The translations under genes and the position numbers were made by a program. Positions 1 through 41,943 of a DNA stretch of 64,000 nt are shown here, piece after piece. Every line of letters starts with the position of its first letter. Position 1 is the stretch's first letter. The notes under the pieces were generated by a model that saw nothing but the letters and a program-made list of their open reading frames with translations, was not told the origin of the DNA and did no database searches. The stretch comes from Elsinoe ampelina (lineage: Eukaryota): positions 336,084-400,083 of the forward strand of contig ML992514.1 of the NCBI GenBank assembly GCA_010093995.1. Direction: 5' to 3'.

Positions 1-205
1 AGCACTTAGCTTAGAAGCTTATAACTATAGTAAGGTATTATTATTAGGAAGACTACTAGGCTATCTCTAGTAGATAGAGGCTTACTAAGCCTTAGGATTA
101 GCTATGGTACCTACTATAGTACCTGCTATAGCTTTAACTATAGTACCTACTATAGTATCTACTATAGTGTCCACTATAGTATCTACTATAGTATCTACTA
201 TAATA
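1..205 (-). repeat. 3' LTR of Gypsy-1 (partial); contains tandem ~12-bp ACTATAGTATCT-like units
   Basis: Direct repeat of 12861-13065 (offset 12860), ending TAATA (=TAACA). Adjacent 206-217 reads GGCCGAGGGACC on minus (PPT position). Confidence 0.9.
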
Positions 206-789
206 GGTCCCTCGGCCTAAATAAATAAAAGGCCTACCCCTAGGCCTTATTACTATTATTAATTACACACTATTATTACCTAAAGTACTACTATTAGGGT
301 GCTACGAACAGAAATATTACTCTAAATAGTTAAGTTATAAAGGAAAATACTTATAGTTAGAAGCTCTATTTATAGATCTAGGTAAGCTAGTCTATCTACT
401 CCCGTTTTAGTCTATAGTCTATAGCTAGTTAGGTCTAGTGTCGGGGGACACTATTCTATAGTCTAGAAGAGACCTAAAGACTCCTCTAGTAGCTAAGCCT
501 AAAGCTCTATTATTCTATAAAACTCTATTCTATCTAGTGTATAAGGCCGAGGCTACGTAAGTATTATATAAGCTAAACTCTATACTTTAAACTATGCTAT
601 ACTATTATTCTATACTATACCTTACTATTCCGTGCTATACTCTTAATATACTATTCTATTATACTATATTCGAAGGGGAGAGAAGAGTATTATAGTTAAG
701 TATTAAGTCGGAAGTAGTTAGGGGTAGTTATTATAGTTTAGTAACACGTCGAGGTAAGTCTTATTAACGTAGTTAAACGCGTGTTAAAG

Positions 790-3700
790 GACTTAGAAGA
801 GTAAGCTATAGTAGTTAGTAGGTATATAGGTGTTATACCTCTATCTCTTATAAGAACTAAAGCTACTACTATACTTAGCTAGGCTACTCTCTAGTATCTC
901 CTTATCCTATATAGACTTAAGCTTAAACTTTAAGTAGTACTTCTTAAAGCTCTACGCTACTATCTTAGCTACTAGACTAGCTATCTTAATTTTCTTATAT
1001 CTAATATAGTTCTTGTACTTAAGGAGATTATAGGTAGACATTATATTAATCCTAGCTACTCTTTCTTTATTGCTCTTACTAATAGTGCCTAGTATAATAA
1101 ATCTCTTAGAGGTAAAGGTACTTCTTTAGATAGACTAATAGGGAGTCTCCGGGAGCTATATACACTTACGTAGAGGTAGCTAGATACTTAACTTAGACTA
1201 AGTAGCTACGCCTCTTTATTAGAAGGCCTTTTATATAAAGGCTTCTTCGATGTACTAGATTATAGTATATATTTTCTTCTCGACCTTTAGGTCGGCTAGG
1301 TTGCTCTTAAGAAGCTTAGTATAGGTTACTAGAAAGCTCTTAAAGTCGGCTAGGTCTATATCGAACTTGTCGGCGGTATTAGTTAGAAGTTTAATAAGAG
1401 AGTTACTTATTAAGCTAGTATTAAAGTTCTTACCCTTAGCTACGTAGGCTTTTATTGTAATAAAAGTGCTATTAATAAAGTTAATAAAGCTTAGAAGCTA
1501 TAGGTCGAGTAGTACTATTAGGTTGTTATTGTTATTAGAGATAGTTCCTCTAAACTTAACTCTAGTTATATCTATCTTAGAGTTAGATTCTACGCCTAAG
1601 ACTAACGCCTTACTATAGCTCTTCTCTAGTACTACCTCTTTATAACAAGGCGGCCTACGCTAGTTATTTACTAAGTAGAGGTAGGTAAAACCAGCTATAG
1701 GCTTATCCTTAGGTTCTATAGAGAATAGAGTATAGTTGTTAGGCAAAGGGTCCCTAGAGATAGAGGCGCTAGTATAGATCGAGTTACTAGTATACTTCTA
1801 CTTATAACAATTATTATTAAATATGTTAGCCTAGGTGCCGTCCTTATTTAAGGACTTCGGATCGTTAAAATCGTATATAGCCTCTCTAGAGCTTATAAAA
1901 CTCTTAATTTTGTCGTAAATGTATTTAGTAACTAGGTTAACCTAGAGCCTAGTATAGTCTACGATCTATTATAGGAGCTTAACGTATAGCTTATCGATAG
2001 ACCTATAGTTAATAATAGTAGGGATATAGATCTTCTTTAGGTCGATATAGCCTTTATATAGCTCGAAAAGGTCTAATTAATTATTGTAGAAGAGTAGGTA
2101 CTAGTTAGACTTAATTATGTCTCTCCTATTAACTTATAAAATATTATAGTCCCGGACCTATATTCCGCCTAGTATATAGACGCTATAGAGGACCGAAACT
2201 CTCTAAGTATTATCCCTTAGAGAGATATAGAAGTAGAGTAGGTTTATGTTTTTATAGGATAATCTAAGTACTTTATTCTCGAAGATGTCTAGGTAGACCT
2301 TACTATACTAAGTTTCTAAGATTATCTTCTTATATATAAGCTTAATAATTTAGCTAAGGATAAAGTTACTTATGTTATAGATACTAGTAGGGGGCATAGT
2401 ATTAGGCGTAACTAAGCTTTAGAAGGCGTCGTAAATGTATTTAATATAGATAATTTAGGTACTACTATCGATATAAACTATTTCCTCGTGCCCTTCTATT
2501 AGGGCTAGACTAATGTCTAGAGTTTATCTACGTGTAATAGCTATGCTAGTTGCTATAGCTTCGACTATAGTAGTTGTAAAAAGAGTTAGAAAGTTAAATT
2601 CGTAGGGCTAGTAATTAAGCTTAGTTCTTAGGTGTTAGTTAATATTTTTAGTAGATAAGGTAGGTTAGACTATAATTGCCTAGGCAATTCTAGTGTTAAT
2701 GTTAATTCTATATAGCTATATATATAGCTACGAGTTGTGTTAAGTTAATATAGTAAGGTCTTTATTGTTATATTATATAATATAGAAGATCTCTATAGTT
2801 GTTATAGTAATATCGAACTATACTACTCCCCTCTATAGAGTAGAGCCTAGCTATACAAGTATTGTATCTAATCTTATAGAGCTATTCTTAAAGTTGTCTA
2901 TTTTATAAGGGACGTACTCTATAGCTAGGAAGGAGTCGTAGACAGTGTTAGTATTATATAGTGTATCTTTATAAAGTCTAGCTTCTAGTACTACCTTAAA
3001 TACTATATGTTTATTATGTCTACTAATGTTATTATTCTTAACCTATTCTATCTATCCCTTAATTGTCCTTTCCTCTAAGGTATAGCCTTTTAGAGCTAAG
3101 AAGACTAAGTAGGTTTAATAGCCTAACTACTTATTACTAAAGTCGACTCTAAGCTCGGCTAATAGGTCTACTATATATTAGAATATTCCTTCTAAGAAGT
3201 ATATATTCTTACGAGTAACTATAAGCTTCTTCTTTCTTAACTTATCTATAAGTTCCTCTATTAATACTATTATTCTAATATTATTAATATGCCTCTACTT
3301 GCCTAGTCTAATAACTCTTACTACGTTTAGTATACTTACGTTTTAATTCTCTATTACTATTCTTCTTAGGGCTTCCTTCTTGCCTTCTACTTGCTTCTAG
3401 TTATATATCTAGTTAGTAACAAGCTTCGCTGCCGTATGCCTCTACTAATCGAGAAATTCTATAGCCTCTTTTAAGGTTAGAAATATTAGGCTAAACTTAA
3501 TAGTAAGCTAGTATATAAACGTTAATTATTTAGTATCGAGAGGGATAAGTATATTAAAAATAACTAAAGCAAGGATCTTAGGCAATTTAATGTTCTATTT
3601 ATCTAAGGCTACCTAACTAAATAAGGCCTTTATAGTACTAGTTAGCTCTAGTACCTTAAAGACTATAAGGTACTATATTAGTTCCATTTCGGAGATTAGT

Positions 3701-4836
3701 ATTAAGTTAAGGAAAAATAAGATATAGGCTAGTAGCTAGGTAATTAGATATGTTATAGACTTAATAGGCTATTATACTACGATAGTCTCTAAGGTAGAGA
3801 AAGGTGCTTCTAGCTTTATATACTATATTAGAAACTTTAGTAGTCGAATATTAGTCTCTAGAGCGTAGTAGAGAGACCTAAAGTAAGTACGTAAGTCTAT
3901 CTTAAAGAGGTATTAGTCTACTACATCTATAAAGCGTAAGTTAAAGAACTTAATATAGAGTAGAACGTTTCTACCTTTATTAGCAACTATATAGTCTACT
4001 TTACTATAATAGAGGTAGTAGCTAACTTTATAGTCTAAGTAGCTACTAGTGTAGAATAGTAAAGACATGTCTATTAGCCCTTTATAGATCTCTACTAGCT
4101 AGGTTATATAATCTACTAGCTCTTTTATATAGTTCTCTTTTAGATTAGTTATATATAAGACTCTCTATAGCTCTATAAAAGCCTTTTACCTTTCGAAAAT
4201 TGTCTACTAGTTCTCTATTATAGGCCTCGCTTTGCTTGTCTTATCTCTAAGGTACTTCTTAATATTTACTATACCTTCGAGGTTATCTATCCTACTTGCC
4301 TCTATTACTACTATTATATTAAGAACACCCTAGGCCTCTCTAGCTATAACCTAGTCCGCTATTAACACTTTACCTTTTACGCAGTATTTAAGTAATGCTA
4401 AATAGATTAGCGAAGTAGATATAGTAGGCAAGTCTAGTAGGTAAAGAAATTTCTAGGCTTTCTTCTAGGTTAGACCTACGTCTCCTAGTACTATAGTAGC
4501 TATAGTAGCGTTTTTAATTCTATCGTTTAGGACGTAGTATATAAAACCCTTAGGGGATTAGATTAATAATAGTGCTTCTTCCGCAGTTAGGGTATATATA
4601 ACTATAGCATAGAGAGTAGAGTAATATAGTATGTCGTTTTCTATAAGGGTATTATATTTATCTTTAGAGAGTTAAAGAATATTATATATGCTCTTCTTAA
4701 GCTTCTTATATTCGTAGCTAGTTAAGGAAAGGTAGTCTCTTAATTGCTTATTCTTAGAGAGGGTAGATAGCTTAGAAAGTGTTTTCTTCCCCTCGGTATA
4801 GCCTAGGGGATCTAGTAAGCGAATATCCGTCGCTAT
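790..4836 (-). pseudogene. Relic ~1350-codon extra ORF (ORF3) of unknown function between pol and 3' LTR of Gypsy-1
   Basis: One minus-strand frame from ATA(=ATG)GCGACG at 4836 to ~790 reads protein-like. Phase was constant in all lines checked, and the stops seen were TAA/TAG (RIP products of CAA/CAG/TGG). A pyrimidine-rich leader lies upstream. Confidence 0.7.
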
Positions 4837-5099
4837 AGTTAATAGAGAGCTTAGAGAAGGTAATAATTAAGTAGCGTATACTATGTAAAAAGGCGTAAGT
4901 ATAGCTAGTAGTGTTAATATTAGCATATTTACTATATTTTAGCTTTAAGGTTAGAGGGGTAGTACGCTAAGACTATATATTAAGCTAGTATCTAGAGTCC
5001 CTACTATAGTATTTACTATAGTATAAAAATTTTGCTAATAAAAGAGAAATTTAGTAAGGAGATATAATAATATAGTTACGGCAATAAAGAAAAGTAATT

Positions 5100-8000
5100 A
5101 TTAGGCCTATCTTGTCTCTCTTCTTCCTTTTAGTCTGCCTTTAATTCTTAATCTTTGTCCGGGATAATAAGTATCGTATTTCTCTATTAAACCCTTTATA
5201 TCCTTTAAATCCTCCTTGTCGTACTAAGCGTCGTATTATATGCTATAACTCTTCTATTGCACTAGATATTACGTGATAGCCTTACCTTTCTTCTATAGTA
5301 ACCTCTTATTAATAAGCATATCGATTTTATATATGTCCCTCTTATCTATAGCGTTATCTATAGTTTATACCGGTCCTAGTTCTACTACTATCCTACTAAA
5401 GGGGTCCTTATCCTATAGTACTCTCTCTAACTAGACTACCGACACTATAGAGTAAATGTTCTTTAGCTAAACTAAGTCTCCGATGTTCGCTAATTTATAA
5501 GCTAATTCTCTAATATATTTCTCTACCTTAAATAGTCTAGCTCGTCGAGGTCTAAGCTTCTCTAGCGGCACTACTAACTAGTATCTATATCTAAGACAAA
5601 GAAAAACCTTGTCGCCTAGCTTAAAGGTGATTTACTTATACTTAGCGTTATATTATACTTTTATCTAACGTTAGGTAAAGCATAGTAAGTCTTTAGTAGC
5701 TTTTCTTACTTTAGCTCGAAGCTACACCTAATCTTCCTAGTTAAGCTCCGATATAAGCTAGACTAAGTTAGTACGGAGCTAGAATCCGTAAAGGTACTTA
5801 TTAGGTAACACTCTAGTTAAGGAGTTATAGGCGTTATTATAGGAGGCTATAACATAAGGAATAATTTCCTCCTAGTTACTATTAGAGTTTTTAGCTATAA
5901 ATATTCGAAAGGTAAGCTCTATAGTCTAGTTAGTTTATTCTAACTGTCTATTAGTCTATAGATAGTAGGCTATAGATGTTAGTATTTAAGTATATAGCTT
6001 TATAAATACTATAGTCTAGAATTCCGAAAGGAATTTAGGATCTCTATCTAATATAAATCCTATAGGTATATCCTATCTAGTGTAGAAGATTATATCTAAC
6101 TAGGCCCGAGCCTAGTTACCTACTATCTAGTTCTTTCGGCCTACTACTAGAAGTATATATTTAGACGCTTTATTAGTTATAGATATTACCGAATTCTTAT
6201 TTAACCTAGTTATTAGTAGGTCCGTAACGAAGTTCGCTACTATAGTATAGAATAGAATGTTTAGAGTAACTACTAGTCGGAGCTTACTATAGGGCTTATA
6301 GTAGGCCGTCTAGTTAAGGTAGCAGATCTTATAATACTTAATGTATTTCTTAAGTTTCTTACTAAGTCTACGGATATAGACCCCTATTCTAAGCCGCTCT
6401 ATAGTTCGGTAAAATTCTAAATAGAACTTATTATTGTAGGCTATTTTAAACACTTCCTAGACTAAGGCTTAGAAAATATAAAGGCAGTCGGAGCAATTAC
6501 TATTATTATAGAAGTAAAGTAAACTATCCTTAAGGAAGAATAGAGAGTTAAGGGGCATACTATTCTCTATTTCTTCCCTAGCTATAACCTTAGCTCTAAT
6601 CTCCTCTACCTTTCTAGCCTCTTCTAGTATAGGCTTATACTCCCTATCTTTCGCTAGAGCTTTACGAAGTTTATTCTTAAAGGGGTCCCTATAACTATAC
6701 TATAGTATAGTTATACGAAAATAGATCTAGAGTGTTAGGCTTATTCTTCTCTACCTTAGTACAATTCTCTATTAGATAGCTTAAAGCATTATAAACCTTA
6801 TATATATATCTAGGACAATAACAAACATCGAGATTAAACTAGAAAAGGTACTACGAAGCTCTAACTAAGCGTAGGTTAAGTTTGTTAACGCTAGTTATAG
6901 TTATTAGGCTTAACTATTTAGATAGCGCTACTATAGTATAATAGTTAGTAAAGACAATAAGTAGAGTTACGCTTACTTTAGCTATATAATAGATCCGACG
7001 TAATAGCTAGACTACCCTAGCGACTTCTAGCTCTATAGGCTAGTAGTTCTTCTCGGCTAAGTTTAATCCCTTACTAAGGAAGGTAATAACCTCGAGGTTA
7101 GTGTTTAGGAAGTAAGTAGCTTTACTATCTTCTATAACTAGGTCAGGATTGCTCTTAACTATATAGACTACTATACTATACCTCTACTAACGGCTACTAT
7201 TAACGTCGGCGTATAGCCGACACTTAGAATTATAATAATAAAGGAAACTTAAGTCTCTAAATTGCTCGCGGAGCGCGTTATAGGCTATATAGGCCTCGGC
7301 GTAGACCTTGTCTATAAGTGTAGCTATAATTAGAGTCTTTTAGCTATAAGCCTTATAAGCTTCTCTCTTATTACTAGAGGAGGCTTTAAGCAAGGTAGTC
7401 TTTAGAGCCTAGAGAGGCTCTACAATTTAGGTATAGTATAGAATTATTATATATACGTACCTAGTTAATCCTAGATAGTACTCTAGATCCTTTAGAGTCT
7501 CTAGGAAGGTAATATCTAATAGTACTTAGACACGATCCTTGTAGGTAGCTAAACCTAAGCTAGATACCTTATAGCCTAGAATAGTTATAGAAGGGTAGCT
7601 AAGAAAGGTCTTCCTAGAGCTAAGGCTAACGTCTATATTATTAAGTAGCTTAAACAGCTACTCTAAATAATTTAGATAGTTGTCTAAGAATATAGAGTAT
7701 ATAAAAATATTATTAATATAGGCTCGGACCGAATTATAGAGGCTATAGAGTATAGTATCTAAGCGCCTTTAGACGTATTATACGCTATTATAGTAGCCTA
7801 TAGGAGTAACCTTAAGGTGCTTCTATCCGCGAGAGGTATTAATAGTAAGCTTATAGTAGTTCTCTTCTACGACGAGCTATTAGTAAAAGAAGAAAACTAT
7901 ATCTATAACACTAATATATAAAGCTTCGCTTAACTAGGAGATAATATTAAACTAAAGAGGTACGGGGTATAAGTCCTTCTCTAAGATCTTATTAAGACTA

Positions 8001-9570
8001 TAGATATCTATAACTACGCGGCCTTTTCGAATAGGTTCTCTATTACCTCTAGTAATATTCTTCTAGATAACAAAGACTAGAAAACTAAATAGAGTATACT
8101 ATATAGACTAGCCTACCTTACCCTTACTATAGAGCTTATCTATAGTTTTATTAATGATTTTCTAAGCTAGTTTAGAGGCTAGGTATACTTTAGTTAGAAG
8201 TGTCTCCTTCTTCTATTCTAGCTTTAAAGGTATCTTTATATATAGTTCTTTTAGTACCTTAACTACTATTCCCTTATCGACCTAGAGGCGTTTATACTTT
8301 GTTACTAATGCCGAGAGTTCCCTTAGGGCTCGTCCTTCGCTGTAAATAGTTACTCTATTTAATAGTCGAGACTCTAGTCCCTTATAACAGCTAGTATTAA
8401 TAGGTATAAATTGTTCTATAAACTTAAAGTCTGTCTTAGAGATCTAATATATACTGTCGAAGTCTATAGGACTAAGGGTACTAACCTATATGTCTTTAGA
8501 GACTACTATAGTAAAGTTAGTATTATTATATATATAAATAGCCTTAAAATCTTAGTCCGTTAGGACGGCGTAAACTGACGCCTTTACTATTAAGGCTATA
8601 AGGCTAAATTCTACTTCCTTTCTATAGAGAGTAAAAAGGTATATATCGCTTAGTAGGACGTAGTTAATGTAAATGCCGATTATAGCGCTAGTATAGAGTA
8701 GTAGGGTATATATTACTATAGCCCTTACTAATATACTCTTATTAATTCTTTCTCTATTATAACGCTTAATAGAGATTAGAATATAGTAGTTAGAGTAAGC
8801 CTTAAAGTATATATTCTTATTGTTAAAATTAATAACTATGCTGTAGTTGCCTATAACATTAGTTACTAGAAGTATACTAGGTTCGAGCTTATTAGCTATA
8901 TATAGTTCTACGTTAAATAGTAGCTAGATATCTTTCCTATTTCTATAGGCTAACGTATATACTATAGCTTTAGTGTACTTAAAAGTCATAGCTGTTCCCC
9001 TAATACTATTAATATAGATTAGCTACTTTAAGCTATAGTATTAAAGCTTATACTTATTCGCTAGAGCACTATTAATTTATAGAATCCCCGCTCTAGTATT
9101 AGCAACTCTAAGTTAAGGTAGCTCTAAGGTAGATAGGGCTATTACTATTTCTATAAAGCGCTATTTATAGTAGTTATATCTCTAAGTATTAGTCTTCTTA
9201 AGGGCGTAAGGCAATATAGGGATGTCTTAGAGTATAGCTACGAAGGAGGTTAGTATTGTCGCCTACGTAGCCTTCTACTTGTCCGGGAAATAGTTTAGGT
9301 GCTTATACTTAATATAGGTATAGAGCTTATTCCCTAAGCTAGCTACGAAGGTATAGGTTTTATAGGGGTAAAGCGGCTTAACGGGTATTAGCAAGGTCTT
9401 AATAGTCTTAGGTATTACGTTATAATTAACCTTTGTTACTGCTCTAACACCGAGTAGTTCCTTAAAGCTTAGTACCTCGAGCCTTAATAGCTCTCGGTCT
9501 AGAGTACTAATTCTAGCTACTACGAAGAAGCTACTTACTTTGTCTAGTTTCTACTCTTCTAGCTCTATAT
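5100..9570 (-). pseudogene. pol: Gypsy-1 pol relic (PR-RT-RNaseH-IN-chromodomain)
   Basis: RIP-altered YIDD, YHPQTDGQSE and chromodomain (QYLVxWKGY...DAWY) motifs in Gypsy order; ends approximate. Confidence 0.85.
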
Positions 9571-12500
9571 TTTCTTAGTTAGTTCCGGCTATAATCTCTA
9601 GTAGGGCCTTACTCTAGTATTCCCTAGCTATCTCGTTATAGAGGTACTAATTATTCTCTTTCTAGCCGGGACTATAGGACTTACTATAGTAGCCTTAGTA
9701 GACGCTAGAGTTGTCGTATAGGTCGAAGTAAGGGTTAAAGGAATCGTTAGGTAGAATATAAGAGTTAGGCCTACTATAGTACGCTCTAACTCTTAGTAGG
9801 TAGTTAGGGTAGCTAGCGGCTAGTAGGAAATAAGACTAAGAGCTATATAGGATATATCCTAGCCTATACTAACGACTACTATAATTAGGGCTATTATAGT
9901 TCTAGTTGCTATATAATCTGTTATTAGGATAGTAGCTATTCTAGTTCTAGCTCTAGTTCGGGTTTAAAGTGTTTTACTACCTAGGCTTTATTTCGCTTTA
10001 TAGAGGTACTAGGCTTAAGGCGCTTCTATAGTTAGCGTTATTAGAGTTCGGAGCGAACAGTTAGCGTATAGTCTCTATAGTCCTCTAGTACGTTAGACTA
10101 CTTATACTTACGTTTAGTATAAATCCGTAAGGTAGGCATAGGTATAGGTAAGGAGAGTAATAGGCTAACAGAGTTAGTGCCGGTAGAAAGTAATTCTACT
10201 ATAGGTTAGCTCTAGAAGGAGGTTCTCTAGTAGTAGGCCTTCTTTACTCCTATAGCCTATAATTGTTTATAGTACTAGATTGCTCCGAAGATTGCTATCT
10301 ACCTTTAGTGTTTAAGGTGTAGCTTAGCTTACTAAAGTTATAGTAGAGAGTGTCGACCTTAGCCTCTATATACTTAATAAATTAATTAATAGTAGTTGTG
10401 TTGTCGGGCTTATCGATATAGAGCTAGAAGCTATCCTTAAGACGGAACTAGGCTTATATTAGCTAGCTATAGGTGTCTTTAATACCTATGTCTCGATAGT
10501 AGTAGACAATAGTAAGAATGTAGTTTTATAGAGTATAATTCTCCGCTAGACTATACTTGTTAAATTTTTTATTGTTTAACAATCTCTAAGCCTTAGAGTT
10601 ACTAGTCTTAAATTGCTTAATTATAGCATTCGCTAACCTCTTAATACTATAACCTCTATAGAGATATTTATAGTTACTATTAGTAAGCTCTTCTATCTAC
10701 TATAAACTAGTATCTCTCTTAAAGTAGAGATTTAGATTGTAGTAGACATTCTAGGATAAATAGATATAAGCGAAGTTCTTTATAGAATTAAGAAATAGGT
10801 GTATATTCTTAATAGCCTAAAATTGACCTACTACTATAGTTTTCTAGTTCTTAGCGGCATTTATGTTAGGCTAAAAGTAACCGATAGTAGCTAGGCTAGC
10901 GTAGTATTTTTGCTTCTTCTATCTATACTCTATCTTATTATTATTAGTATAGAAGTCTAATACTAAATTTGTATCCTTGTATCTTAAAGGGCACTTATAT
11001 CTACGTTAATGTCTATATTAACGGCTATAGTATTTATCTTTATAGTAGTAGAAGCTATCTAATCTAGCTAAGCTAGAAGGGCTAGAGCTATTATCGCTAG
11101 ATAGGGGTAAGAGTTAGCATGTCTAGTATTACCTTAAGCGTCCTATGTCCTCTCGAGCCTAATTATAGTATTAGAACTTCTAAGGTAATAGCGGAACTTA
11201 TTACTTAGTCTAGCGCTTATAGCCGGTTATAGAGCGATTTAGTTATTCCTAGGCTCTCTAGTTCTAGGCTCTATAGTTCTAAGTACTAAGGTTTACCTAT
11301 GTAAGTTAGTACTTATAATTGTAATTAATAAACTTATTATATTTATCCTTACGGATTTTACTCTCTATAGTTCTTAAATAGTTTAGAAGTTAGTTCTACT
11401 ATACCTATAACATAGTTACTAGTAGTAGTTCGAGGTGCTTAGGAGGTATAACTATTCGGCTAGTATTATTAGAATAGACGTAGTAGTGCCTCTAATAACT
11501 AAGTCTTATATCGCTTAAAGGAGGCTAGTTATAGCCTTATTCTTAATTAAGAGTATTGTCTTTGTTGTTTAGGCTAGCCGAGAGATAGTCGATATAGATT
11601 ATATTACTTATATTAGTAAACTTAATAAGCTTCCTATTTATTATAGAGAGGTTAGGGCCTTTATAATAGCCTTTAAAGGAGCAATAGTAGACCTTTTAAT
11701 AGAAGAAGGTTTCGGGCAATCCTAAAGGATAAAAAATCTATATATCTATAGAAGAAGCTTATAATAACTTAGAACTCTATTCTCTACTAAGATTTGTAGG
11801 TACTAAAGTAGGTAACGGTACTTCTTCTAGTTCTAGTAAGCTAAAGGTCGAGGGGGAAAGAGTTAATAAGATCGATTAGATCCTTGCCTACTATAAGGAC
11901 GTTAGGAGGCTACCTACGCTTAGTAGTGTACCTAGTAAGGCTCTAGTTAGTAGTAACTTTACTAGTGTCGAAGCTCTAGTTAGTTAAGCTCTAACTAGTA
12001 GTAAATTCGCTAGCGATGTAGCTCTAGTTAGTAGTAACTTTACTTGCACCTAATTACTAGGCTCGGCGTAAGTATCTAATAATTATAGAGTAGTACTTAA
12101 CTACTAATCTACCTACTCTTACTAACCTAGAATATTATTTACTCTTATTGCCTCTTTTAACCTTAATAGGGTTTGTTTAATAGCTATGTATAGAGCCTTA
12201 GTAAACTTATAGATTGCTACTAAGAGAGAGTTCGTAGTTAAAAGCTAGTTCTTAGAATAGCTATCTAGTAGCTAGTTATATAGCGCTAGCTTCTTACCCT
12301 CGGCCTTTAATAAAGGCTAGGTTATAGAACTTGCCGCTATTTAATTAACAACTTGTATAATAGCTGAATTCTTCTTAGTAAGGTGCTACTCTAATACCTT
12401 AGAAGCGTATATACTAAGGTAGAATACTGTCTTAATAATATATAGGTTAAATTTGGCTTCTATATCTAGAGCTACTTAGACGCGTTCCGGAGTAATAAGA
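9550..12500 (-). pseudogene. gag: Gypsy-1 gag relic with long repeat-containing N-terminal region
   Basis: Fungal Gypsy gag-like motifs ~10600-10890; short internal repeats GCTCTAGTTAGTAGTAACTTTACT ~11940-12045; ends approximate. Confidence 0.55.
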
Positions 12501-12734
12501 TACTATAAAATTGTACTTGTCGTTTCTACTGTTAATACTAGCTTACTAGTAAGCCGTTCTAAAGGCTCGCGCGTGTTAGTATAGCTTAGGTGGATTCTTA
12601 GTAGACTAATATAAGTTAAGCCTAGGCTCGGTCTATACTATAGTAAGTAATTATAAGGTTATAACTAGTTGCTTAATAAGTGCTCTAGGTTACGGTGTAA
12701 TAGAGTTATCGAGTCTTAATACTTAGCTTAGCTA

Positions 12735-13065
12735 TGTTATAAGCAATTGTTAACTATAGCTAGTATACCGCCTTAGTGTTAGCTTATATAAGGAAATCGT
12801 AGAGTATTACTACCTAGAGGTATTAGAATTAAGGAATTAGAACGATACTACTACTTGTTAAGCACTTAGCTTAGAAGCTTATAACTATAGTAAGGTATTA
12901 TTATCAGGAAGACTACTAGGCTATCTCTAGTAGATAGAGGCTTACTAAGCCTTAGTATTAGCTATAGTACCTACTATAGTACCTGCTATAGCTTTAACTA
13001 TAGTACCTACTATAGTATCTACTATAGTGTCTACTATAGTGTCTACTATAGTATCTACTGTAACA
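12735..13065 (-). repeat. 5' LTR of Gypsy-1 (~331 bp)
   Basis: Begins TGTTATA and ends TGTAACA (TG...CA with short terminal inverted repeat). The right part matches 1-205; the left boundary is inferred from the terminal motif only. Confidence 0.8.
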
Positions 13066-14640
13066 CTTCTATTACTAAGGAAGTATAACATTAGAAGGAG
13101 TTAACTCTACTAGTGTTAATTAACACAGCTATTACTATTAGATTACACTTAGCATTTATCTTAGCTACTACTAACATCTTAAGCTTATAGATACTAGATT
13201 CTAGAGTAACTAATTACATCTATAATTACACTATAAAGGACAGATATAAGGTTACTAGAATTATAAAACCTTATAAGAAGCTATTCTATAGTAATACCTT
13301 ACTTAGTATTAAGAGTTAGAGAACTATTAATATTATAGCTCTTTATAAAGGAAAGTCTATAACTATCTATCTTATAAAAGTAACCTATATACTATTAATT
13401 ATAACTAATCTAGTTAGCCTTAGGAGGTTTATTAATAGTAGAGTCTACTAGAACACTTAAACTATAAAGATTAGCTATAAAGGAAAAGTGCTCTTCTTAG
13501 TTATACTAAAGTATAACTAATATATCCTTAAGAATAACTCTAAAGTTCCTAATGTTACTACTATAGCATTAAGGGATAATAATAATTGTCTACTATTAGT
13601 ATTTACTATAGTTACTAGAAGGACTAATTAATCTTAGTATAAAGTTATAGGCTATCTAAGCCTAGAGTCTATTAATTACCTTCTAACTGCTATAGTTAGT
13701 AGTAAACTAACTCTAACTAAGCCTAGTTTAGCTTAATTAATTTATCTTAGGTCTCTATATTAGACTTATAAGCTATTAAATACTTAGTAGATTATATTAA
13801 GAAGCCCTAATACTAAACTTACTATATTAAAGCTATTTAAGAGAACTACCTTTAATATTATTATTAACAGATTTACTAGCTATAATAAGGCAAGATATAT
13901 AAGCTACTTTGCTTATAGGACTACTAACTATTAACTAGTTACTACCTATACTTATAGATATAAGATTAATAAAATCTGTATTAAGATAATTACTTATATT
14001 AAAAGCAATCTTAGCTTTAAAATTAGATTTCTTAGGAGTAATAATAAGAGGGCCTTTAGCCTTAAATTTACTATCTTTCTAGACAGTAAAGGAATCTATT
14101 ATAAGCTATCTACTCCCTATACTTAAGCTTAGAATAGTTATAATAAAAGGATAGAAGCTATACTATTAAGGAGAGTAAGGGCAATTACTATCTTTGCTAA
14201 TCTACTAAGGGAATTATACTCTAAACTATATAGATTAGTAGCCTATCTAATTAATAGAACACCTCTTAAGAAGCTAGACTAGAAGACTCTTTTTAAGCTA
14301 GTTTATAGATACTCTCTATTAGTTACTTATCTTAGGCTACTTAGATATAAAGCTTATACTTTAGATAAGCTTATTATAAGTAGTAATAAGCTTACACTAA
14401 GGGCTTATATTAGCTATCTAGTTAGCTATAACTTAACTAATATCTTTAGGATCTTTATACTAGCCTCTAAGAAGGTTATTAGAACAAGAGATATTAGATT
14501 TAATAAAACTTAGTTCTATAAGCTAGAGGAATAACCTTAGCTAAACCAAAAACCAATTAGATTACTTAATCTACTAAGGCTCCTATAGGAGGTTAATAAA
14601 TCTAAAGGGGTATATAAAGTAGAGGGAATAACTAAACTAA

Positions 14641-14712
14641 ATCTAGTTTAGTATCTAGTTTAGTATCTAGTTTAGTATCTAGTTTAGAATCTAGTTTAGA
14701 ATCTAGTTTAGT
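14641..14712 (+). repeat. Tandem 12-bp repeat (ATCTAGTTTAGT/A) x ~6 in the Copia-1 IN-RT linker
   Basis: Read directly from sequence. Confidence 0.9.
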
Positions 14713-16262
14713 AGCTAAACTAGATACTATCTTAGACTCTAAGTTAGAGCAATTTAGATTAAGAGCTAAGCCTATCTTAGTAGCTAGATAAGAGTTACCC
14801 TATTATACTAGATTAGTTACTACCTCTATTAGACTAATGAGATAAGGCTATTCTAGATCTAAATCTAGCTTAGATCTAAGAATCTTTACTAAATAAACAG
14901 TTCTTTAATACTCTAGCCTTACTACTATCTATAGTAGTATAGCTATCTCCTCTACTACTAGGAGGAGATAAAGCTAAAGGAGATAAGATAGAAGTTTAGA
15001 CTAAAGAGGTAGTTAAAGCTTAGCCTAAGTAACTCCCTTAAAGAATTGCTATAAGGTTAGCTAACTTTCTTCCTAAATATATCCTTATAATAAGAAGAAT
15101 AAGAAAACTAAGAAGGCAAGTATATATTACTATCCTTATATAACCTAATAAGGCTCCTAGATATTACTAAGCCTTTAATGCTTATCTATTAATAATACTA
15201 ACTTAGCCTAAGCTAGAATTAAGAGATAATCTTTTACTACTACTAGCTAATATTAGAGAACTTAAGGCTTATCCTTATAAGAAGTAATTTTAAGAAGCTA
15301 TAAAGGCTAAATTAATTACTTTATACTTAAAATATATATAGACTATTATACTAGCTGCTTAAGTAATAGGTAAGCCTATCTCTTTAATATAGGTATTTAC
15401 CTATAAAGTTAATAATAAAGGAGAGATTATAAAGTATAAAGTAAGAATCTATATAAGGGATAATCTCTAATTAATAGAATTAGAGACTTATATAGCAACT
15501 TTAGTAGCTAAGATCTTTAGAATACTTATAGCTCTACTTACTTATAAAGATATAAAGGCTGTCTAGATAGATATTATTAATGCCTATATTAATAGCTCTA
15601 TTAATAAAACTACCTACTATACTATCTCTCCTAGATTTAAGTTAGTTATAGAGGAGCTTATAAAGGACTACTCTAGTATTACTCTATTAGATGTAATTCT
15701 CTTACTTAATAAAGCCTTATATAGTCTTAAATAAGCTCTAGCTCTCTAGTATACTAAATTTACTACTACTCTAAAGAGTATTAGTTTTACTTAGGCCCCT
15801 AAGGCTCCTTACCTCTAGCTAACCCCTAATATAATAATCTTCTTCTTTGTAGATAATATTACTATTATATACCTTAAGAAGTACAAAGAGAAAGCTAATA
15901 CTATTATTATAGCCCTCTATACTAAATATAAAATAAAGGTGCTTAAAGATCTAAGCTAGTTTCTAGCTATCTAAGTTATAAGAGATAGACTAATAAAGAG
16001 ACTCTAGCTTAGCTAAGCCTAGTATATATAATAGATATATAGTAAGTTTATTATAGAACTAATAAGGCTAGTGTTAATACTACTACTAATTAAGATACTT
16101 TAACCTTATAAAGGCTAAGTATTACTATAAGAGATCTACCTATACTAGTAGAAGGTTAGATCTATTAACTTTATAGCTGTTATTATAAGGCCTAATATTG
16201 CCTTTGCTACTTCTAGATTGTTAGAGTACTTAACTAATCTATTACTAACTTACTAGGGGCTA

Positions 16263-16403
16263 TGTTATATAAACTATAATAGTTAGTAATAAAAAGTATA
16301 TTAAGATATAGTTGTATAATAATTGCTATAGAAAGCTATCTTAGGTTATATATTCTACGCTAAGCCTTACGCTACGTAAGCTCTAGTTAACTATATAGTA
16401 ACA
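16263..16403. mobile_element. 141-bp solo LTR inserted in Copia-1 near the RT/RNaseH junction
   Basis: TGTTA...GTAACA termini; 5-bp TSD GGCTA at 16258-16262 and 16404-16408; the Copia reading frame resumes after removal. Confidence 0.85.
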
Positions 16404-17011
16404 GGCTAGTAAATAGAGTAATCTAGTATCTCTATAAAACTAGAAATCTAGCTCTTACCTTTAATAGCTTAATGCCACCTCTAATCTTCTAAGCCTTATT
16501 AGATGCTAGCTTTAGTAGTTACCCTTTAAGGAAGAGCCTTTAAGGCTATCTATTTAAGATGTTCTAAGGCTTAATTAACTAGAAGGCTACTAAGTAGCTA
16601 ATAGTTATAATCTTAAGTATAGAAGCTAAATTACTTACTCTTATAGAGACTACTAAGTAAGCTATATAGTAGAGGAGGCTAATAGCCTCTATCTATCCCC
16701 TTAAGCATATTAGCATTTAGTATAACAATTAGTAAATAATTAGCCTTATTACTAGTCTAATTAAGAAGCTAAATATATACCTTTACTATGTTAATATTTA
16801 TTATTATTAGCTAAAACAAGAGATTAATTAAGCTAGAGATCTATCTAGTCCTATCTTAGTTATATAGACACTATTAGTAGATATACTAGCTAATAGATTT
16901 ACTAAATTATTGCTACCTAGGAGGTATAAGGCCTTCTTATAATAGCTATCCCTTAAGTTAGTAGTCTACTAACTAGCTATAACAGCCTTATAGCTATTTA
17001 GTAAAGGAGTG

Positions 17012-21818: not shown

Positions 21819-24800
21819 CTAGAAAGCCCCTCGAATCTTCGCATACAACTCCGTGTCCAAAAAGTTATAATGCGGATCCGAGAAACAGAACGGCGCCCTC
21901 AGCAACGTCTCAGCAGTCGGCCTATCAGCCGGATCACTGCGTCTTGTCAGTCTGTGCCCCCATGCCACCCCTTCGTTCTCAGGACAATACTCACATTGTA
22001 AAGCAATCATACATGAAACTCAACGCCGCCGGGCCCACCACACTCGACACATCATCCGGGATAGGCGGCGCCTGATTCAGACTCCCCAGCTTAAAAATCG
22101 CTCCGATCGCCTCCTCCTTACTCCACGGCCGATTCCCCGCGAACATCTCCAGCACAACGCACCCGAGGGACCAAATGTCCACTTTGGCCGAATAGCCCTG
22201 GTTGCTCGCGTCCGGGTCGCCTTGGGCTTGGCTCTGCGCACGGATGACCTCGGGAGCCATCCAGAAGACGCTTCCCTGCATGGAGTTTGAGATGTCGTTG
22301 TTGTAAGGGTTGCGAGACTTTTTGGAGATGCCAAAGTCGGAGATTTTGCAGGTGCCGTCGAGGTCGAGGAGGATGTTGTCTGCCTTTAAATCGCGGTGGA
22401 GGATGCCTTCGCGGTGGAGGTAGGCGAGGCCTTCGAGGGTTTGCCGCGTGAGAGAGGAGACGACGGATTCTTCGAATTTGCCGTGTTTGCGTAGGACTGA
22501 GCCGATGGAGCCACCGGAGATGTACTCGAGGAAGATGCTGATGGAGTATTCTTTGCGTTCGCAGCCGAGGTATTGCACGATGTTGACGTGGTCGAGGTGT
22601 TGCATTGTGTCGATTTCAGAATCGAGGGCTTTGACCATTTCGCGGATCTTGGAGGGGTCGGCGTTGGGGGCTTTGGGGTTGACTTCGACTTGTTTGACAG
22701 CGAGTAGCTCACCGGTGGTGGTGTTCATACCGAGGTAGACACGGCCAAAGGTACCTTTGCCAATTAGCTGACCGCGCATCCATTTGAAGGTCTGTTGGCG
22801 GCTGGGCTGGTCGCGAGAGGACAATGGGAGATTGTCTTGCGGTATGGTCTCGAGCTGGAACAGCCGGGAACCTCGAGATGGCTTGATCTGCTCGATCTTG
22901 GCACCAAACATCTTGGTCGACTTGCGGCGGACAATGCTCGATTCTGAAGGCTTGAGGGCGCTGATGCGGTTCGGTAGCGCGCTTGCGAAGTATCCGCTAG
23001 GAGTGCGTTCCGATCCGATGGACGAGTTTGACACCTGACTGTTCTTCGAAGACATGCTGTACGCTCCTTTGACCACCTCACGGATCGACTTGGTCCGTCC
23101 GAGACCGCCTTGCTTCCGGAGTGATCTCGCGGCCATGCTTTGCAGCTGGTCGCGGGACTTGAGAGTCGACTCTTCACTGCCCAAGGTGTCATTTTCGTCA
23201 AGGTCAGCAAGTGATGTCCGGCTGGAATTGGAAACATTGAACCATGATGATCCAGCAGTATCGACCGTGCTTGGGTCGGTGCTCTGTGTGAGACTCTCGC
23301 TTCCACTTGATCCCTCCTGCCCCTCGTCTACCATGGGTTGATCCAAATCGACGTTCGGGAAGAACTCGTCAAGATGCTCAACAAGTGCTTCGGCTGGAGG
23401 ACGATTGGCCCACACATCACTAGCGAAGCTCGCCCTTCTATCGAAACCATTATCCTCAGCTGGTGATTCGCCAGATTGATGGCCAGATCCGGCCGAGCTA
23501 GGATGGAACTCGATGCGTCGTTTACCGTCACCATTACGGCTGACGTTTGGCGAAGCTTGCCGTTCTTCATCACCATCAATGGCAGGCGAACCGCCTTTGA
23601 GAGAGACTTTGCCGGAAGATGCCGCGGACTTTTCATCCTTACGCTTGTTAATGGGCACTGCAAAAAGATCATCGTCAGAATCTTCATCGTCATTATCAGG
23701 CGGCGCTGGAGCAGGAGCTCTGTTGGTAAATGTGACCTCCGAGTATGGCAGGTCGAAACTAGGACCATAACTTTTGCGAGTGCCGCGTCGGTGCAGCTGA
23801 CTTTCCTCTGGCTGAGCCGTGCTGGGACTAACATCTGGGCTCTTCGCTGAAAGATCCCCAATCTCGGTTTCCGAAGGTAGTCGTAATTTCAAAGCTGGTC
23901 GCTCGGTAGCGGCATTGCGGAAATTGTCGTTCTGTGCATCTTCGGTAGCGTAGTCTGGAACAAAAAATGGTAAGCCACCCTTGGACATTGTGATAGGAGA
24001 TCGTGGAGAGCTACCATTGCCAGGGCTGTTTCGGCCGGTTTGCTGCTGTTGCTGCTGATTGTTGAAACCGACACTCGCCAGTGCTGTCTTCCCAGCTGCG
24101 CGGCGTTCCAAGATGGTCTCCTGTCTCTGTTCAGGTCGCTTCAATGTGCGCGCAGCATCTTCACCAAGCTGTTTCCATGGGTCCATCTTATGGTCACTGA
24201 TCCTGCTGCTGGGACGCCGTCGGATAGAGATGGTCCGCAAGGTATCACTTGGTTCTGATGGTGGACGAGGTGCTGTCCGCATCGGACGTGTGTGGTCAGA
24301 CTTCCGATCGTTGAACGATCCTGAGCTGCGGTTGTCATAAGGAGATTCTCGACCTTTGTCAAAGTCGATGACCTTGTCTCGTCGGATACTGGGGTCGTAG
24401 CGGTTTTGACCACCGTCCTTTTGAAGCTGTGCTTTGCGCTCGGCTAGGTAAGCCTGTTGCTTTCGCGCTGTCTCCCTGCGATGCTCATCTGCTTTTTGCT
24501 CCAGTATACGAAGTCGCTCATTCTCAGGTATGCTGATTGATTCACGCGACTTGTCAAAATTCCTGAGGTAGCCGGGAGTTGGACGAGGACGAGCTGGCGG
24601 CGCCAACGACTCCCCTGTCTTCATGCCTTCGGACTCTCCACGATCCTCTTGTGGTGCCGTCATACGCTTGATGATGCTCTCTTGGCCCGACGATGGAAGT
24701 CCATGAACATGATTGAAAGGAGAAGTCGGGAAACCACTGCTCATGGCTGCTGTACTTGCGCCATCTGCTGAGAAGCCAGTTCTGACAAACAATTTGAGGC

Positions 24801-27129
24801 TGGCGATAGGGTCTGCAAGCCGAGAACGGGCTGAAAGCATGAGAGAGTCGGACAATCCATCATCGTGCTCGATCTGACCTGGAGCCGTGATATGAAAAGT
24901 GATAGTATGATCATTCGGTATACCAAGATTGTAGCAGATGATGCTCTTCATGTCCTCAGCCGAGTCAGCACCAGACAGATCCACCAGTCTATAGTTCCAG
25001 CCATCTGGAGTCGCAAAGACAAACTTGCGCTCGACTGGTGTCGGAACCTTGTTGTCCCAAGGTCGGTTACTGGGTAGAGCATTCGCAGAGGCTATAGCTT
25101 GCGTATCGGCGGGACTGTTTGGCGGACTGTCTTCTTTGGTGGCTTTGTGCACATCCTTTCGGCTAATCTTCTGCATCAGCGCAGGTGATTTGTTGTCATT
25201 ATTATGCTTGTCTTTGCGACTCTCATGATGCAGCTTGTCTAGTAGATTCGTTTCACTTGCAGCGCTGTTGAGGGTACTGTGGTTGCGACTCTGTTGGTTG
25301 CCACTTGTCGTGTTCTGAGGGATCAAATTTGCTTCGGAGCTGCTGAAATGGTTTGCATAGTATCCTTTTGGAGGCGCATGAGCAGTCTTCGCAGTATGCG
25401 TTTTCGGACTGTGGTGAGGGCTGGATTCCCGAGGCGGACCACGGTGGCCATTATCTTGAGCAGGGCTGGATCTCCGGGCTGGGCCATTCAGACCTCTCAG
25501 TGCGTCCTGGGAAGAGACACTGCGACCCGTTGTGGTGTCAAGGTCCCGTCCCATCGCAAGGTGAGTCAACTTGTCCATGCCCGACTTGTTGCTGGCTTTT
25601 CTCCGTTCTGCCTCCTTCGCAGCTTGCGCCGAGGTTGGATAGTTTGCTGGCATACGCATTCCAGGGCTTTCTTCACCAGAGTTGGCGGTGTTTGGGGTTG
25701 AGCCTGTGATCTCTTGACGCCCTAGTCGCGGTGAACTCTCGACTCCTCCATCGGTACCAGCACTTGGTACACCGGCGGAGCCGTTTCTCTGGTGCCGAGA
25801 TGGGATGCTCGATGCACTGCTACCATTCGCGCTAGTCACAGCATTCTCGACAAGATGCCTGATAAGCTTCCTGGCTCGTTTCCCCTCCTCAAGCGTGGCA
25901 AGTTTGTCGTATGGAATTCCCTGAGCAGAACATTCTTTTGCGACTTGTGGATAGATGTTGTTGTACAGGATAGGCATGTTTACAACCGCGGATCTACCAA
26001 TGTCCAAGAAATGAGAACCGTGTAGATTCAAATGCCTGAAAGCATCTTGCCATGTTTGTGGAAAGTTGTTCGCTGCCAGCCATGAGATCACACGGTCCAC
26101 TGGCCAAGCAAGATCATGTGGCGATGGCGGTGGTTGCTCGTGGCGATCTTCTCTATGAGGTATCGACTGAGCTTCAGTACCGAGTTGTGAGCTTGTCTGC
26201 TGTGGAGCAGGAGACGAGTACTCTTGCTTCTCTTTCGCGGGCATAACCATCTTGGACTTTTTGCTCGAAGGCGTGGGCGGAGCAATGCTGATGCTAGAGG
26301 AGTGCTGCAGGGGTGCGGGTGACTGTTGTAGATTTGAGCTGTGTGGCAAAACGCTATACTGAGGTGGAGGACCACTTGTAGGAAAGGCTGACTGGGGCGT
26401 CTGCTGTTGTTGCGACTGGTTCTGGCTCTGATGGGACGTAGTGTATGAGTAGAGTGTGCTGGAGTCTGACCATCCATTCTGTCCTACATTCGACGAAGCT
26501 GGGTGATCGTTTGGATATGGTGGATTGTTCTGGTAGTCGTGATTGTACCAGGAATTGGCGGGTTGAGAGAACATGGGCCTCAGATTCTGCTGTGTTGGAG
26601 AGTGCAAAGGTGGTATGCCAACGCCCGGGCCAAATGACTCTCCTCCAGGTATGTAAGTAGCGGAGGTTAAGGGCTGGTTGTCCGGAGGTAGAGGCGGCAT
26701 TGACATGTACGCAGAGTAAGCTGTGGGATCGTAGGCTCGGGGCTCCCTGTTCATGTTGATCGGCGGAGGTGGTGGATAGCTGTTCTGGTGATTGAGTCCG
26801 CCCCAAGGAGAGTTCTGTGAGGGCGGTGGAGGCATCATCATGCCATTGTGCCCTGGATGACCGCTTCTGGGTGGCGGAGGAGGGAGGTACATGCCCTGGT
26901 GCTGCTGGGTTGACAAGGGAGGAGGAGGTGGAGGGACATAGCCTCTGCCCACTGCTTCAACCTGTGCTGCAGAAGCATGTCTTTGTCCAGGCGCGGCAGT
27001 CCCAGGAGTTGACGGTGTGTTCCTCCTGTAGATATCTTGCGCCTGCTGAGCTGCAGCGGCGTTTGGATCGGCGTATGTATGTGCGCGCGGCCGTGGGCTC
27101 GTACTGTATGGTGGCTGTTGTGTAGCCAT
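21819..27129 (-). CDS. BCK1: MAP kinase kinase kinase of the cell-wall-integrity pathway (Bck1/Mkh1/BckA); 2 exons
   Basis: SAM-like WPVDRVISWL; conserved WANRPPAEALVEHLDEFFPNVDLD; C-terminal STE kinase GKGTFGRV, AVKQV, HRDLKADN, DFG, GSVFWMAPE. Intron 21937-21994 (GTGAGT..CTGAC..CAG) joins FTI/DPADRPTAETLL...AF*. ATG at 27129. Confidence 0.95.
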
Positions 27130-28145
27130 GTCTGAGGTGAGACGCAAGGTCTACTGACCTCTTGTGTCAAGATCTCGATGAACGACCTTCATTCGGCTGG
27201 GTTGTGATGACAGGTGTGGTCCTCAATGCCCTGCTCTTTCTCTACTCGCTGAGTTACGAAGTACTGAAGCTACGGCGAGCGAGATGCGATCGAGATGTGT
27301 ATAGCGGAGGCGCCGCTCATGTTGGCACGAATGCGCCCAGAGTCTCAGTGTGCTCGGCTTGTGCTTTGTGTGGCCGACAGTCTTGTACAATGTTTCTGAG
27401 AGTCTCGGTAACTTTCTGGGAGAAGCAAAAGGATTTCGTGCCTGTCTGTAGCAAAAAGTATGGTTCCTGTAGGCTCGACTGGCTCGTGCCTCTGTGCAGT
27501 AATAACGTGCAGGAGTAGGACGTCGCCGTTTCACGCTACCCGATGTAGGGCAGAAGCGCAAGATCCGGGGTCGTATTCGGCCGTTGAGAAGGGCGACACG
27601 AGTCTTTGAGGATGTTGTCTGATGACAGGCAATGTCGCGAGGATACTCCGCTCCCTCTACCAGTACTACCTACCAGAGCAACACGGTCAAGTTCAAGCGA
27701 TGACGGGCCGGGTCAAGGAATGCGCTTGTTTCCTTAAACTCTGCGCTTTACCTCTCTGGGGTATAGCACAGAGTTGCTTTGCTTTGCTTTGCTTCACCAC
27801 CTCAGTACTACCAGGACGGCTTCCACGTCCTTTGACATGTCAAAAAGAAACGGTCTTGTGTAATGGTCAAATCTTGTGGAACTATTCTTAGCCCATCGCT
27901 TACCTGTCTGGTAGTTAATCTGACTTTATGCCCTCGCAACAGTGTTCACCTGGTCAAAGTGAGAAAATGTTTCATTAGAGGGTTTTAGCAGCTGTCGGTC
28001 GAGTGACAGCCAGTGGGTCTGTGGCTTGTTAGCGTCCGCCGCCGTTGTACTCCTTCCTCACCAAAATAGCTAGCGGCCGGCGTACAATTCGAGCACCTTA
28101 GCGTAATCCTTCTACAGTGCTAATATTTGCTACCTCGTCGTCAAT

Positions 28146-41626: not shown

Positions 41627-41850
41627 AGTTAAAGTTCGTATATAAAATTTTAATATATATAAAATAGTAAAAAGAGAAGACTAGAGTAAGAAATATAAAA
41701 TCTATTATTAGATGCGCTATTTACTATTAATAATAAGAACAATAAAAGAATAATAAATAACTTATATAATAATAGCTTTCTTATTTCTTACTCTAGCTTC
41801 TCCTTTTATTATTTTACATATTTATAAATTGTAATTTCTAACTCTAACTT
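41627..41850. repeat. Imperfect long inverted repeat (hairpin)
   Basis: AAAATAGTAAAAAGAGAAGACTAGAGTAAGAAATA (~41660-41695) mirrors TATTTCTTACTCTAGCTTCTCCTTTTATTATTTT (~41782-41815); outer AAGTTAAAGTT mirrors AACTCTAACTT. Confidence 0.75.
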
Positions 41851-41943
41851 TACCTTTATACCTTTACTTCTTTTACTTACCTTATATATAATTTATATAC
41901 TATAAATACTCTTTTTATTATATTTAATTAAATATCTATACCT

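Follow-up and report, generated by a model that had tools for sequence, protein, structure and literature searches.

A RIP-degraded 13-kb Ty3/Gypsy retrotransposon of Elsinoe ampelina with the remnant of a probable third gene between pol and the 3' LTR

The first 13 kb of a 64,000-nucleotide stretch of the Elsinoe ampelina genome (GenBank assembly GCA_010093995.1, contig ML992514.1, positions 336,084 to 400,083; hereafter the window) contain a long terminal repeat (LTR) retrotransposon of 13,070 bp, which lies on the minus strand and is saturated with repeat-induced point (RIP) mutations. Between the end of its pol region and its 3' LTR lies a segment of about 4 kb that was once a single open reading frame (ORF), here called ORF3. 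We report the evidence that ORF3 was a gene, that it belongs to the repeat family, and that it probably encoded an accessory protein of the element.

Structure of the retrotransposon

The limits of the element were set by a direct repeat found by repeat search (1-203 and 12861-13063, 97% identity), which reading of the sequence extended to LTRs of 210 bp with TGTTA...TAACA ends. About half of each LTR consists of a 12-nt tandem repeat present in 8-9 copies (102-202 and 12953-13059; consensus CTATAGTATCTA on the plus strand). The parts of the element, in the direction of its transcription, are as follows.

12856-13065, minus strand: 5' LTR, 210 bp, TGTTA...TAACA ends, 8.9 copies of the 12-nt tandem repeat
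8021-12855, minus strand: presumed to hold the protease, gag and a 5' leader of unusual length; no Pfam matches, frame signal weaker above about 11,000
6980-8020, minus strand: reverse transcriptase (RT) and RNase H (RH); frame one base off that of integrase and ORF3
5398-6465, minus strand: integrase (IN); Ty3 integrase match (E 2.9e-5) over 6381-5398, weak matches to the H2C2 zinc domain (6465-6313) and SH3_Tf2-1
5176-5346, minus strand: chromodomain-like IN C-terminus; weak CDY-type matches, motif by eye
4927-5105, minus strand: pyrimidine-rich spacer from the end of pol to ORF3, without codon periodicity
790-4926, minus strand: ORF3, a former ORF killed by RIP, in the integrase phase; length about 1,349 codons if counted from 4836, about 1,379 if counted from the ATG at 4926-4924
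219-789, minus strand: presumed 3' untranslated region between ORF3 and the polypurine tract (PPT); frame signal absent
206-218, minus strand: PPT-like AGGCCGAGGGACC immediately upstream of the 3' LTR, proposed from sequence reading
1-205, minus strand: 3' LTR, starting with TATTA at 205 (a RIP-mutated TGTTA), about 8.4 repeat copies, last ~5 nt beyond the start of the window

Sequence reading also gave a candidate primer-binding site (PBS), the PBS-like TAGTAGTATCGT, 1 nt inside the 5' LTR. Next to the outer end of that LTR the candidate target-site duplication of 5 bp is AGAAG (13070-13066), its counterpart lying beyond the start of the window. Within the window the retrotransposon was found only once.

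When stops were read as X, the RT (8020-7409) matched that of Ty3 in a phmmer search of PDB (E 2.6e-15, 59 bits), whereas RNase H (7102-6980) gave only weak Pfam matches (E 0.002-0.003) under the curated cut-off. Pfam missed RVT_1, rve and Chromo in the pol region, its H2C2, SH3_Tf2-1 and RNase H matches all being sub-threshold. The order RT - RNase H - IN with a Ty3-type RT is nevertheless clear, as are two direct LTRs with TG...CA termini, and the LTR pair together with the Ty3-like RT and IN places the element in Ty3/Gypsy (Metaviridae). It is likely to be a chromovirus, a status that has been weakly tested: residues 452-508 of the query (5346-5176) resemble CDY-type chromodomains in PDB weakly (E 0.56 and 1), and a YLV.WKGY...D.W pattern can be seen by eye. 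The pol region ends near 5106, downstream of this chromodomain-like stretch, with TAG, TAA and TAA at about 5106-5097.

Two further features of the gag-pol region deserve mention. At about 6860-6700 (minus strand), where RNase H gives way to integrase, pol passes from frame 1 into frame 2; this may be a programmed frameshift typical of the family or an indel peculiar to this copy, and none of the contig indels listed falls there. The ~1.8 kb between the PBS and the first gag-like sequence (12855 to about 11,000, minus strand) has no Pfam matches, a weak single-frame stop depletion (3-8 versus 8-16 per 80 codons) and a weaker purine bias (0.55); this region may represent either an extended leader or another ORF in decay.

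ORF3 is a former gene

Read in the integrase phase, the segment 4836-790 has 73 stops in 1,349 codons, while the two remaining sense frames have 180 and 194. The best frame of dinucleotide-preserving shuffles (n = 1,000) had 138.9 ± 6.9 stops and none of the 1,000 reached 73 (z = -9.6). A first-pass annotation made from the letters alone had described one sense frame of about 4 kb, free of frameshifts in the lines checked, between the end of the chromodomain and the 3' LTR, and both statements held. Across 240-nt windows from about 4940 to 740 the ORF3 frame had the fewest or tied-fewest stops in most, with seven exceptions; other frames led in at most two adjacent windows and there was no persistent switch of frame. 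Hence, no indel is apparent in ORF3. The frame signal fades at 860-740, and the end of ORF3 near 790 is thus approximate.

The second line of evidence is independent of stops. RIP causes transitions only and therefore the purine/pyrimidine signature of codons survives it. The purine fractions at codon positions 1, 2 and 3 were 0.62, 0.48 and 0.46 for ORF3 and 0.61, 0.48 and 0.43 for RT-RNase H, and the first-position bias was present in each third of ORF3 (0.58, 0.66 and 0.63). Purine periodicity was absent from the adjacent non-coding stretches, 5100-4801 and 750-300.

The stops that are present in ORF3 are those expected of RIP acting on an intact gene. Their in-frame density is 5.41%, higher than in RT-RH (4.51%) and lower than in IN (6.29%), and host ORFs of the window subjected to simulated RIP of 85% of CpA/TpG acquired 4.55%. 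The ORF3 value is therefore what conversion of Gln and Trp codons in an intact gene would give and, since it equals that of pol, ORF3 was about as intact as pol when RIP struck. One argument of the first-pass annotation, that the stops are exclusively of RIP type, proved uninformative: the three sense frames together contain just 3 TGA triplets in 13.1 kb (TpG observed/expected 0.26), so that any stop in any frame looks RIP-type. ORF3 showed no internal repeats and, compared as protein, no similarity to any other part of the window.

A skeptic might argue that the segment was never a gene and that its frame bias is a compositional artefact of RIP acting on a long untranslated region. The lack of any surviving ORF of at least 60 aa in 1-15,000 and of any homologue for the segment would suit that view. 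We strongly disfavor it, given the departure from the shuffles (z = -9.6), a phase that is constant over 4.1 kb, RNY-type purine periodicity identical to that of the RT, and the loss of that periodicity in the non-coding sequence on both sides. Taken together, the data support ORF3 as a former protein-coding, intronless and frameshift-free ORF.

The junction between pol and ORF3

The stretch 5100-4801 is 59% pyrimidine, lacks codon periodicity and has a first-position purine fraction of 0.48 (versus 0.62 in ORF3), in agreement with the pyrimidine-rich leader of the first-pass annotation. That annotation put ORF3 at about 1350 codons, which matches the 1,349 counted from 4836, although an in-frame ATG that survives at 4926-4924 is a better start candidate and would give about 1,379 codons. 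ORF3 would then be a separate third cistron that starts at ATG 4926, is set off from pol by some 180-270 nt of non-coding pyrimidine-rich spacer and might be expressed from the full-length transcript or from a sub-genomic or spliced one.

An alternative is that the segment extended Pol at its C-terminus, the product being a Pol-ORF3 fusion from which the protease may have cut the extension free. ORF3 does share the phase of IN and the chromodomain, and the three stops at 5106-5097 could be RIP products of Gln or Trp codons. Shared phase would occur in 1 of 3 cases by chance, however, and the intervening stretch (5100-4801) is pyrimidine-rich, devoid of the first-position purine bias and more densely populated with stops in this frame (8 in about 90 codons). 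We consider the fusion quite improbable.

ORF3 is part of the repeat family

Other copies were sought in the contigs of two DNA runs, X1 and X2 (same organism, one sample), by comparison at 80% likeness or more with 1-13400. X1 and X2 contain 0.79 and 0.76 of the words of the ORF3 segment. Contig pieces less than 99% alike numbered 344 of 496 for X1 and 504 of 800 for X2, and all 30 bins were covered. The details of individual copies rest on the 16 of 1,309 contig pieces and the 40 of 1,275 variant places listed. Among these, ORF3 is matched at 3149-3614 by a piece of 466 nt that carries 58 differences, and a piece of 332 nt with 35 differences runs from the end of pol into the spacer at 5055-5386. 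Of the 40 variant places, 17 fall in 790-5100, and 16 of those 17 are transitions. Over the whole stretch, 1,114 of the 1,203 places at which X1 differs are transitions, and at 703 of them another copy keeps a G or C. The presence on ORF3 of diverged pieces that differ by transitions indicates that several copies, differing mainly by RIP, carry the segment. Two other runs, possibly of RNA, had no contig on the element, which says nothing about its expression.

The first-pass annotation had pointed to copies lacking the segment as a sign that ORF3 did not belong to the element. Each of the four joints listed skips only 70-113 nt within 7638-10031 and none removes ORF3; nor did a copy without the segment appear among the contig pieces listed. 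These data support ORF3 as part of the repeat family rather than something private to this copy. In its broad form the first-pass proposal, that the retrotransposon family carried a large intronless extra gene, is therefore borne out by the coding signal, the pol-like intactness and the other copies with the segment. Moreover, at least 703 places that are mutated here still have G or C in another copy, so that a de-RIPped ORF3 is recoverable from existing data.

Composition and the age of ORF3 within the element

Throughout 790-5100 the observed/expected ratios are 0.12 for CpA, 0.26 for TpG and 1.68 for TpA. This depletion of CpA and TpG and excess of TpA, together with the preponderance of transitions among copy differences, is what characterizes RIP-mutated repeats. 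The RIP indices of ORF3 (TpA/ApT 2.01 and (CpA+TpG)/(ApC+GpT) 0.206) are the same as those of pol (2.01 and 0.194), compared with 0.59 and 1.28 in a GC-rich block of the window. Overall GC is 0.317 in ORF3 and 0.334 in pol, and GC at third codon positions (GC3) is 0.367 and 0.368. Given equal exposure of the two regions to RIP, the composition of ORF3 must have been pol-like before RIP.

These values bear on the possibility that ORF3 is a processed host gene that was retro-captured and only recently transduced. Several properties would suit a captured gene: it is intronless over 4 kb, it lies just upstream of the PPT and 3' LTR where template switching could add sequence, and its size is comparable to those of the large host genes of the window (1,719 and 1,652 stop-free codons). 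Its GC and GC3, however, are those of pol and fall below those of the RIP-simulated host ORFs (0.405 and 0.418), and the search of 1.84e9 representative proteins (see below) would probably have detected a conserved host gene of fungi, considering that the RT still scores 59 bits against Ty3. Recent capture thus seems unlikely, and the compositional comparison provides modest evidence that would favor a long-resident gene of the element.

Relatives and motifs of ORF3

All searches used ORF3 queries read with X at stops. A word-indexed search of 5.8e9 proteins gave no ORF3 match at E ≤ 0.01 among 7,999 scored candidates. Scans with back-translated patterns gave 582 pattern matches in metagenome contigs and 24 in viral contigs, of which none was confirmed, and a 48-letter R/Y-degenerate DNA pattern designed to tolerate RIP (2149-2196) had no matches in metagenome contigs. 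Single-sequence AlphaFold2 modeling of 1,200 ORF3 residues was unusable (mean pLDDT 32.1, pTM 0.26, no residue at or above 70).

Searches with other RIP-mutated sequences served as controls for sensitivity. The RT of the element gave two matches with the word-indexed tool (best E 1.9e-9) and eight with PDB phmmer (best, the Ty3 RT, E 2.6e-15), but a neighboring pol that is Copia-like by eye (13068-16064) gave no PDB match at E ≤ 1. As RIP blunts these searches (Pfam misses the RT and the Copia-like pol is blank), the blanks obtained with ORF3 are weak evidence of novelty. A domain of ORF3 as well conserved as the RT should, nonetheless, have shown in the phmmer search of 1.84e9 proteins, where we estimate that 59 bits corresponds to an E value of about 1e-11.

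When the ORF3 frame was scanned for motifs in a way that tolerates RIP, none of the YxDD, GDD, DEAD/DExH, HUH, CCHC, kinase or furin type appeared. The scan did find one Walker-A-like site about 100 residues from the C-terminus and one 'DGS' site, both in unconvincing contexts, whereas five control frames had neither. The latter site, 'VYIDGS', was considered as an RNase-H-like motif (one match versus none in the five control frames) and was dropped because the expected downstream acidic residue is absent.

The same results address whether ORF3 could be the main ORF of another mobile element (a DNA transposase, a Helitron RepHel or a LINE ORF2) that entered the master copy on the 3' side of pol and was carried along passively thereafter. 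A length of about 1,350 aa suits large transposases or RepHel, the latter given as more than 1,500 aa in PMC6431247, and such a composite would still be mobile as one LTR unit, consistent with its presence in many copies; the failure of the Copia-like pol to match anything in PDB also makes blank searches a poor objection. The first-pass annotation had asked whether the segment has terminal inverted repeats (TIRs) of its own. No TIR or LTR was found to flank it, the only repeats being short, AT-rich and of chance level (70-85% identity), a result compatible with Helitron- or LINE-type insertions that lack such repeats. ORF3 has no RT, helicase or transposase match in PDB even at E ≤ 10 while the RT and IN of the element still match Ty3. 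Its frame is devoid of YxDD, DEAD/DExH and HUH motifs, with only the Walker-A-like site near the C-terminus; its codon-position composition is identical to that of pol, and neither a LINE-type second ORF nor an A-rich tail is evident beside it. Passive carriage of another element's gene is therefore unlikely.

Does ORF3 encode an envelope protein?

As an ORF of its own, flanked by pol and the 3' LTR, ORF3 is in the position of env genes, although it is two to three times longer than the env genes of errantivirus- and Athila-type elements. A third sense ORF in this place, preceded by a spacer, is likewise described for Drosophila errantiviruses and for the env-like ORFs of plant Athila-type elements (PMC13524379, PMC4408406). 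ORF3 differs from the Env-carrying Ty3/Gypsy elements in three further respects. Hydropathy with sampling of RIP reversals revealed no evident Env-type membrane anchor near the C-terminus, RIP-tolerant reading of the frame found no furin-type RxK/RR sites, and no similarity to Env or fusion proteins was found in the 1.84e9 proteins, PDB, Pfam or viral contigs, at a sensitivity lowered by RIP. The most hydrophobic segments, counted from the ATG, were residues 451-465 (1.98), 398-412 (1.78) and the N-terminus (1.5); the N-terminus following ATG 4926 is hydrophobic as read, and on RIP-reversal sampling the probability that its mean hydropathy exceeds 1.6 is 0.42. The product of ORF3 may thus be a lineage-specific accessory protein rather than an Env-type fusion glycoprotein, and it could act inside the cell in the cycle of the element, for example in targeting, RNA handling or counter-silencing.

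The most probable reading of ORF3

We conclude, with a probability of roughly 0.6, that ORF3 is what RIP has left of a real, intronless gene of the element, about 1,350-1,380 codons long, which was propagated with gag-pol and encoded a non-Env accessory protein. Located in the internal region of a chromovirus-type Ty3/Gypsy family, it would have been copied with gag-pol in each round of retrotransposition. A broader claim, that a third gene of very large size and without detectable relatives was acquired by a lineage of fungal chromoviruses, or arose in it de novo, and that the lineage was still amplified as a 13-kb unit, is tentative.

Several considerations weigh against our conclusion. An exhaustive phmmer search with 1,200 ORF3 residues against 1.84e9 representative proteins gave no match at E ≤ 0.001, PDB phmmer gave none at E ≤ 10, and Pfam gave none at E ≤ 5 with five overlapping ORF3 pieces of 400-500 aa, the whole frames also being blank. 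The first-pass annotation could recognize no domain in ORF3 either. With no homologue, at the sensitivity that RIP allows, nothing positive supports any function, the fusion protein, anti-silencing factor and captured host gene of the first-pass annotation included. As ORF3 and IN share a phase, a Pol-ORF3 fusion is possible, real and RIP-made stops being indistinguishable. The hydrophobic residues 398-412 and 451-465 and the N-terminus keep a membrane protein possible, although the soluble RT-RH control reaches a similar value (1.77). Copies that lack ORF3 could exist outside the contig pieces listed, X1 and X2 may be the source of the window itself, and contig depth gives no copy number.

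Nor does this copy allow a function to be deduced, since RIP has made roughly every second codon ambiguous (752 of 1,445 when RIP reversals were enumerated).

Setting of the element within the window

GC-rich gene blocks (about 50-56% GC) alternate with AT-rich blocks (about 25-35% GC) across the 64-kb window. The AT-rich blocks comprise 1-17,000 and 28,000-52,000 and both carry the RIP signature. A protein-level comparison found no ORF3-like remnants in the second AT-rich block (28000-52200), which holds further RIP-mutated coding remnants on both strands (for example 37300-39999, plus strand, in one frame, and 46801-48300, minus strand).

Adjoining the 5' LTR on the plus strand (13066-16065) is a RIP-mutated coding remnant of about 3 kb that reads in one frame, with 6-15 versus 20-31 stops per 200 codons. 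By eye it is Copia-like, having an RT motif, 'FVDNITIIY', downstream of an integrase-like part. In the bin 12964-13400 contig depth was about 41,000-45,000, compared with about 400-1,100 over the retrotransposon, so part of this bin is very highly repeated.

Two host genes were noted in the GC-rich blocks.

21994-27150, minus strand: stop-free stretch of 1,719 codons with a protein kinase domain at its end (E 2.8e-58)
59045-64000, plus strand: stretch of 1,652 codons with PNP_UDP phosphorylase, NACHT/NPHP3_N and ankyrin repeats; continues past the end of the window

The domain order of the second gene, as predicted from its sequence, is that of the fungal NLR type. The characters of the window (RIP-marked AT-rich blocks, and GC-rich blocks with a protein kinase and an NLR-type gene) fit a filamentous ascomycete.

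Discussion

Classical fungal chromoviruses (MAGGY, Tcn1-like) are about 5-8 kb and encode gag and pol only. The E. ampelina element has in common with them TG..CA LTRs, the RT-RNase H-IN order, a Ty3-like RT and IN and a chromodomain-like IN C-terminus. It differs in its length of 13,070 bp, in the extra sense ORF of about 4.1 kb that follows the chromodomain, and in its long 5' leader. More generally, fungal LTR retrotransposons are treated as gag-pol-only, and AT-rich RIP-mutated blocks are usually annotated as 'degenerate Gypsy'.

The first-pass annotation, likewise, took fungal Gypsy elements to be much shorter than 13 kb and limited to gag and pol, and each half of that generalization has a published exception. 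The first is RLG_Rolly of Leptosphaeria maculans, a giant RIP-mutated Gypsy of 11,875 bp with LTRs of 235 bp and 594 copies (PMC3105345 Table 4; PMC4210507). RLG_Rolly resembles the present element in being a giant Ty3/Gypsy whose AT-rich surroundings are degraded by RIP and form blocks between GC-rich ones that hold the genes (PMC3105345); the lengths differ (13,070 bp and LTRs of 210 bp here), the two having been compared by description only. The second is Boty/BcGypsy1 of Botrytis cinerea, a fungal Gypsy with a gene beyond gag-pol, brtn (PMC8365987). The brtn gene is antisense, however, whereas ORF3 is on the sense strand and about 1,350 codons long. Our search of the literature found no large sense-strand third ORF in a fungal LTR retrotransposon, only the antisense brtn, the supplements of the RLG_Rolly papers lying outside the search.

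Ogre, Retand and Burro, which belong to other kingdoms and lineages, offer a further comparison. The extra ORF of Ogre is located upstream of gag. Two sources describe oversized internal regions with extra ORFs in these elements, which were still amplified to many copies, as was the element described here (PMC6431247, PMC11963269). The accessory ORFs of plant Ogre and planarian Burro elements are given there as of unassigned function, and the extra domains of Burro are fused in the polyprotein (PMC6431247).

If the broader claim made above is true, no accessory gene of this size on the sense strand would have been described before in a fungal LTR retrotransposon, and its protein would have been tolerated by, or useful for, retrotransposition. 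Possible roles would include counter-defense against fungal genome defenses and a part in transfer from one hyphal compartment or nucleus to another. More generally, if a third gene of about 1,350 codons persisted during an entire burst of amplification, large cargo or accessory functions would be within the reach of fungal retroelements, and ORF3 would offer a candidate for the interaction of such an element with host defenses or chromatin.

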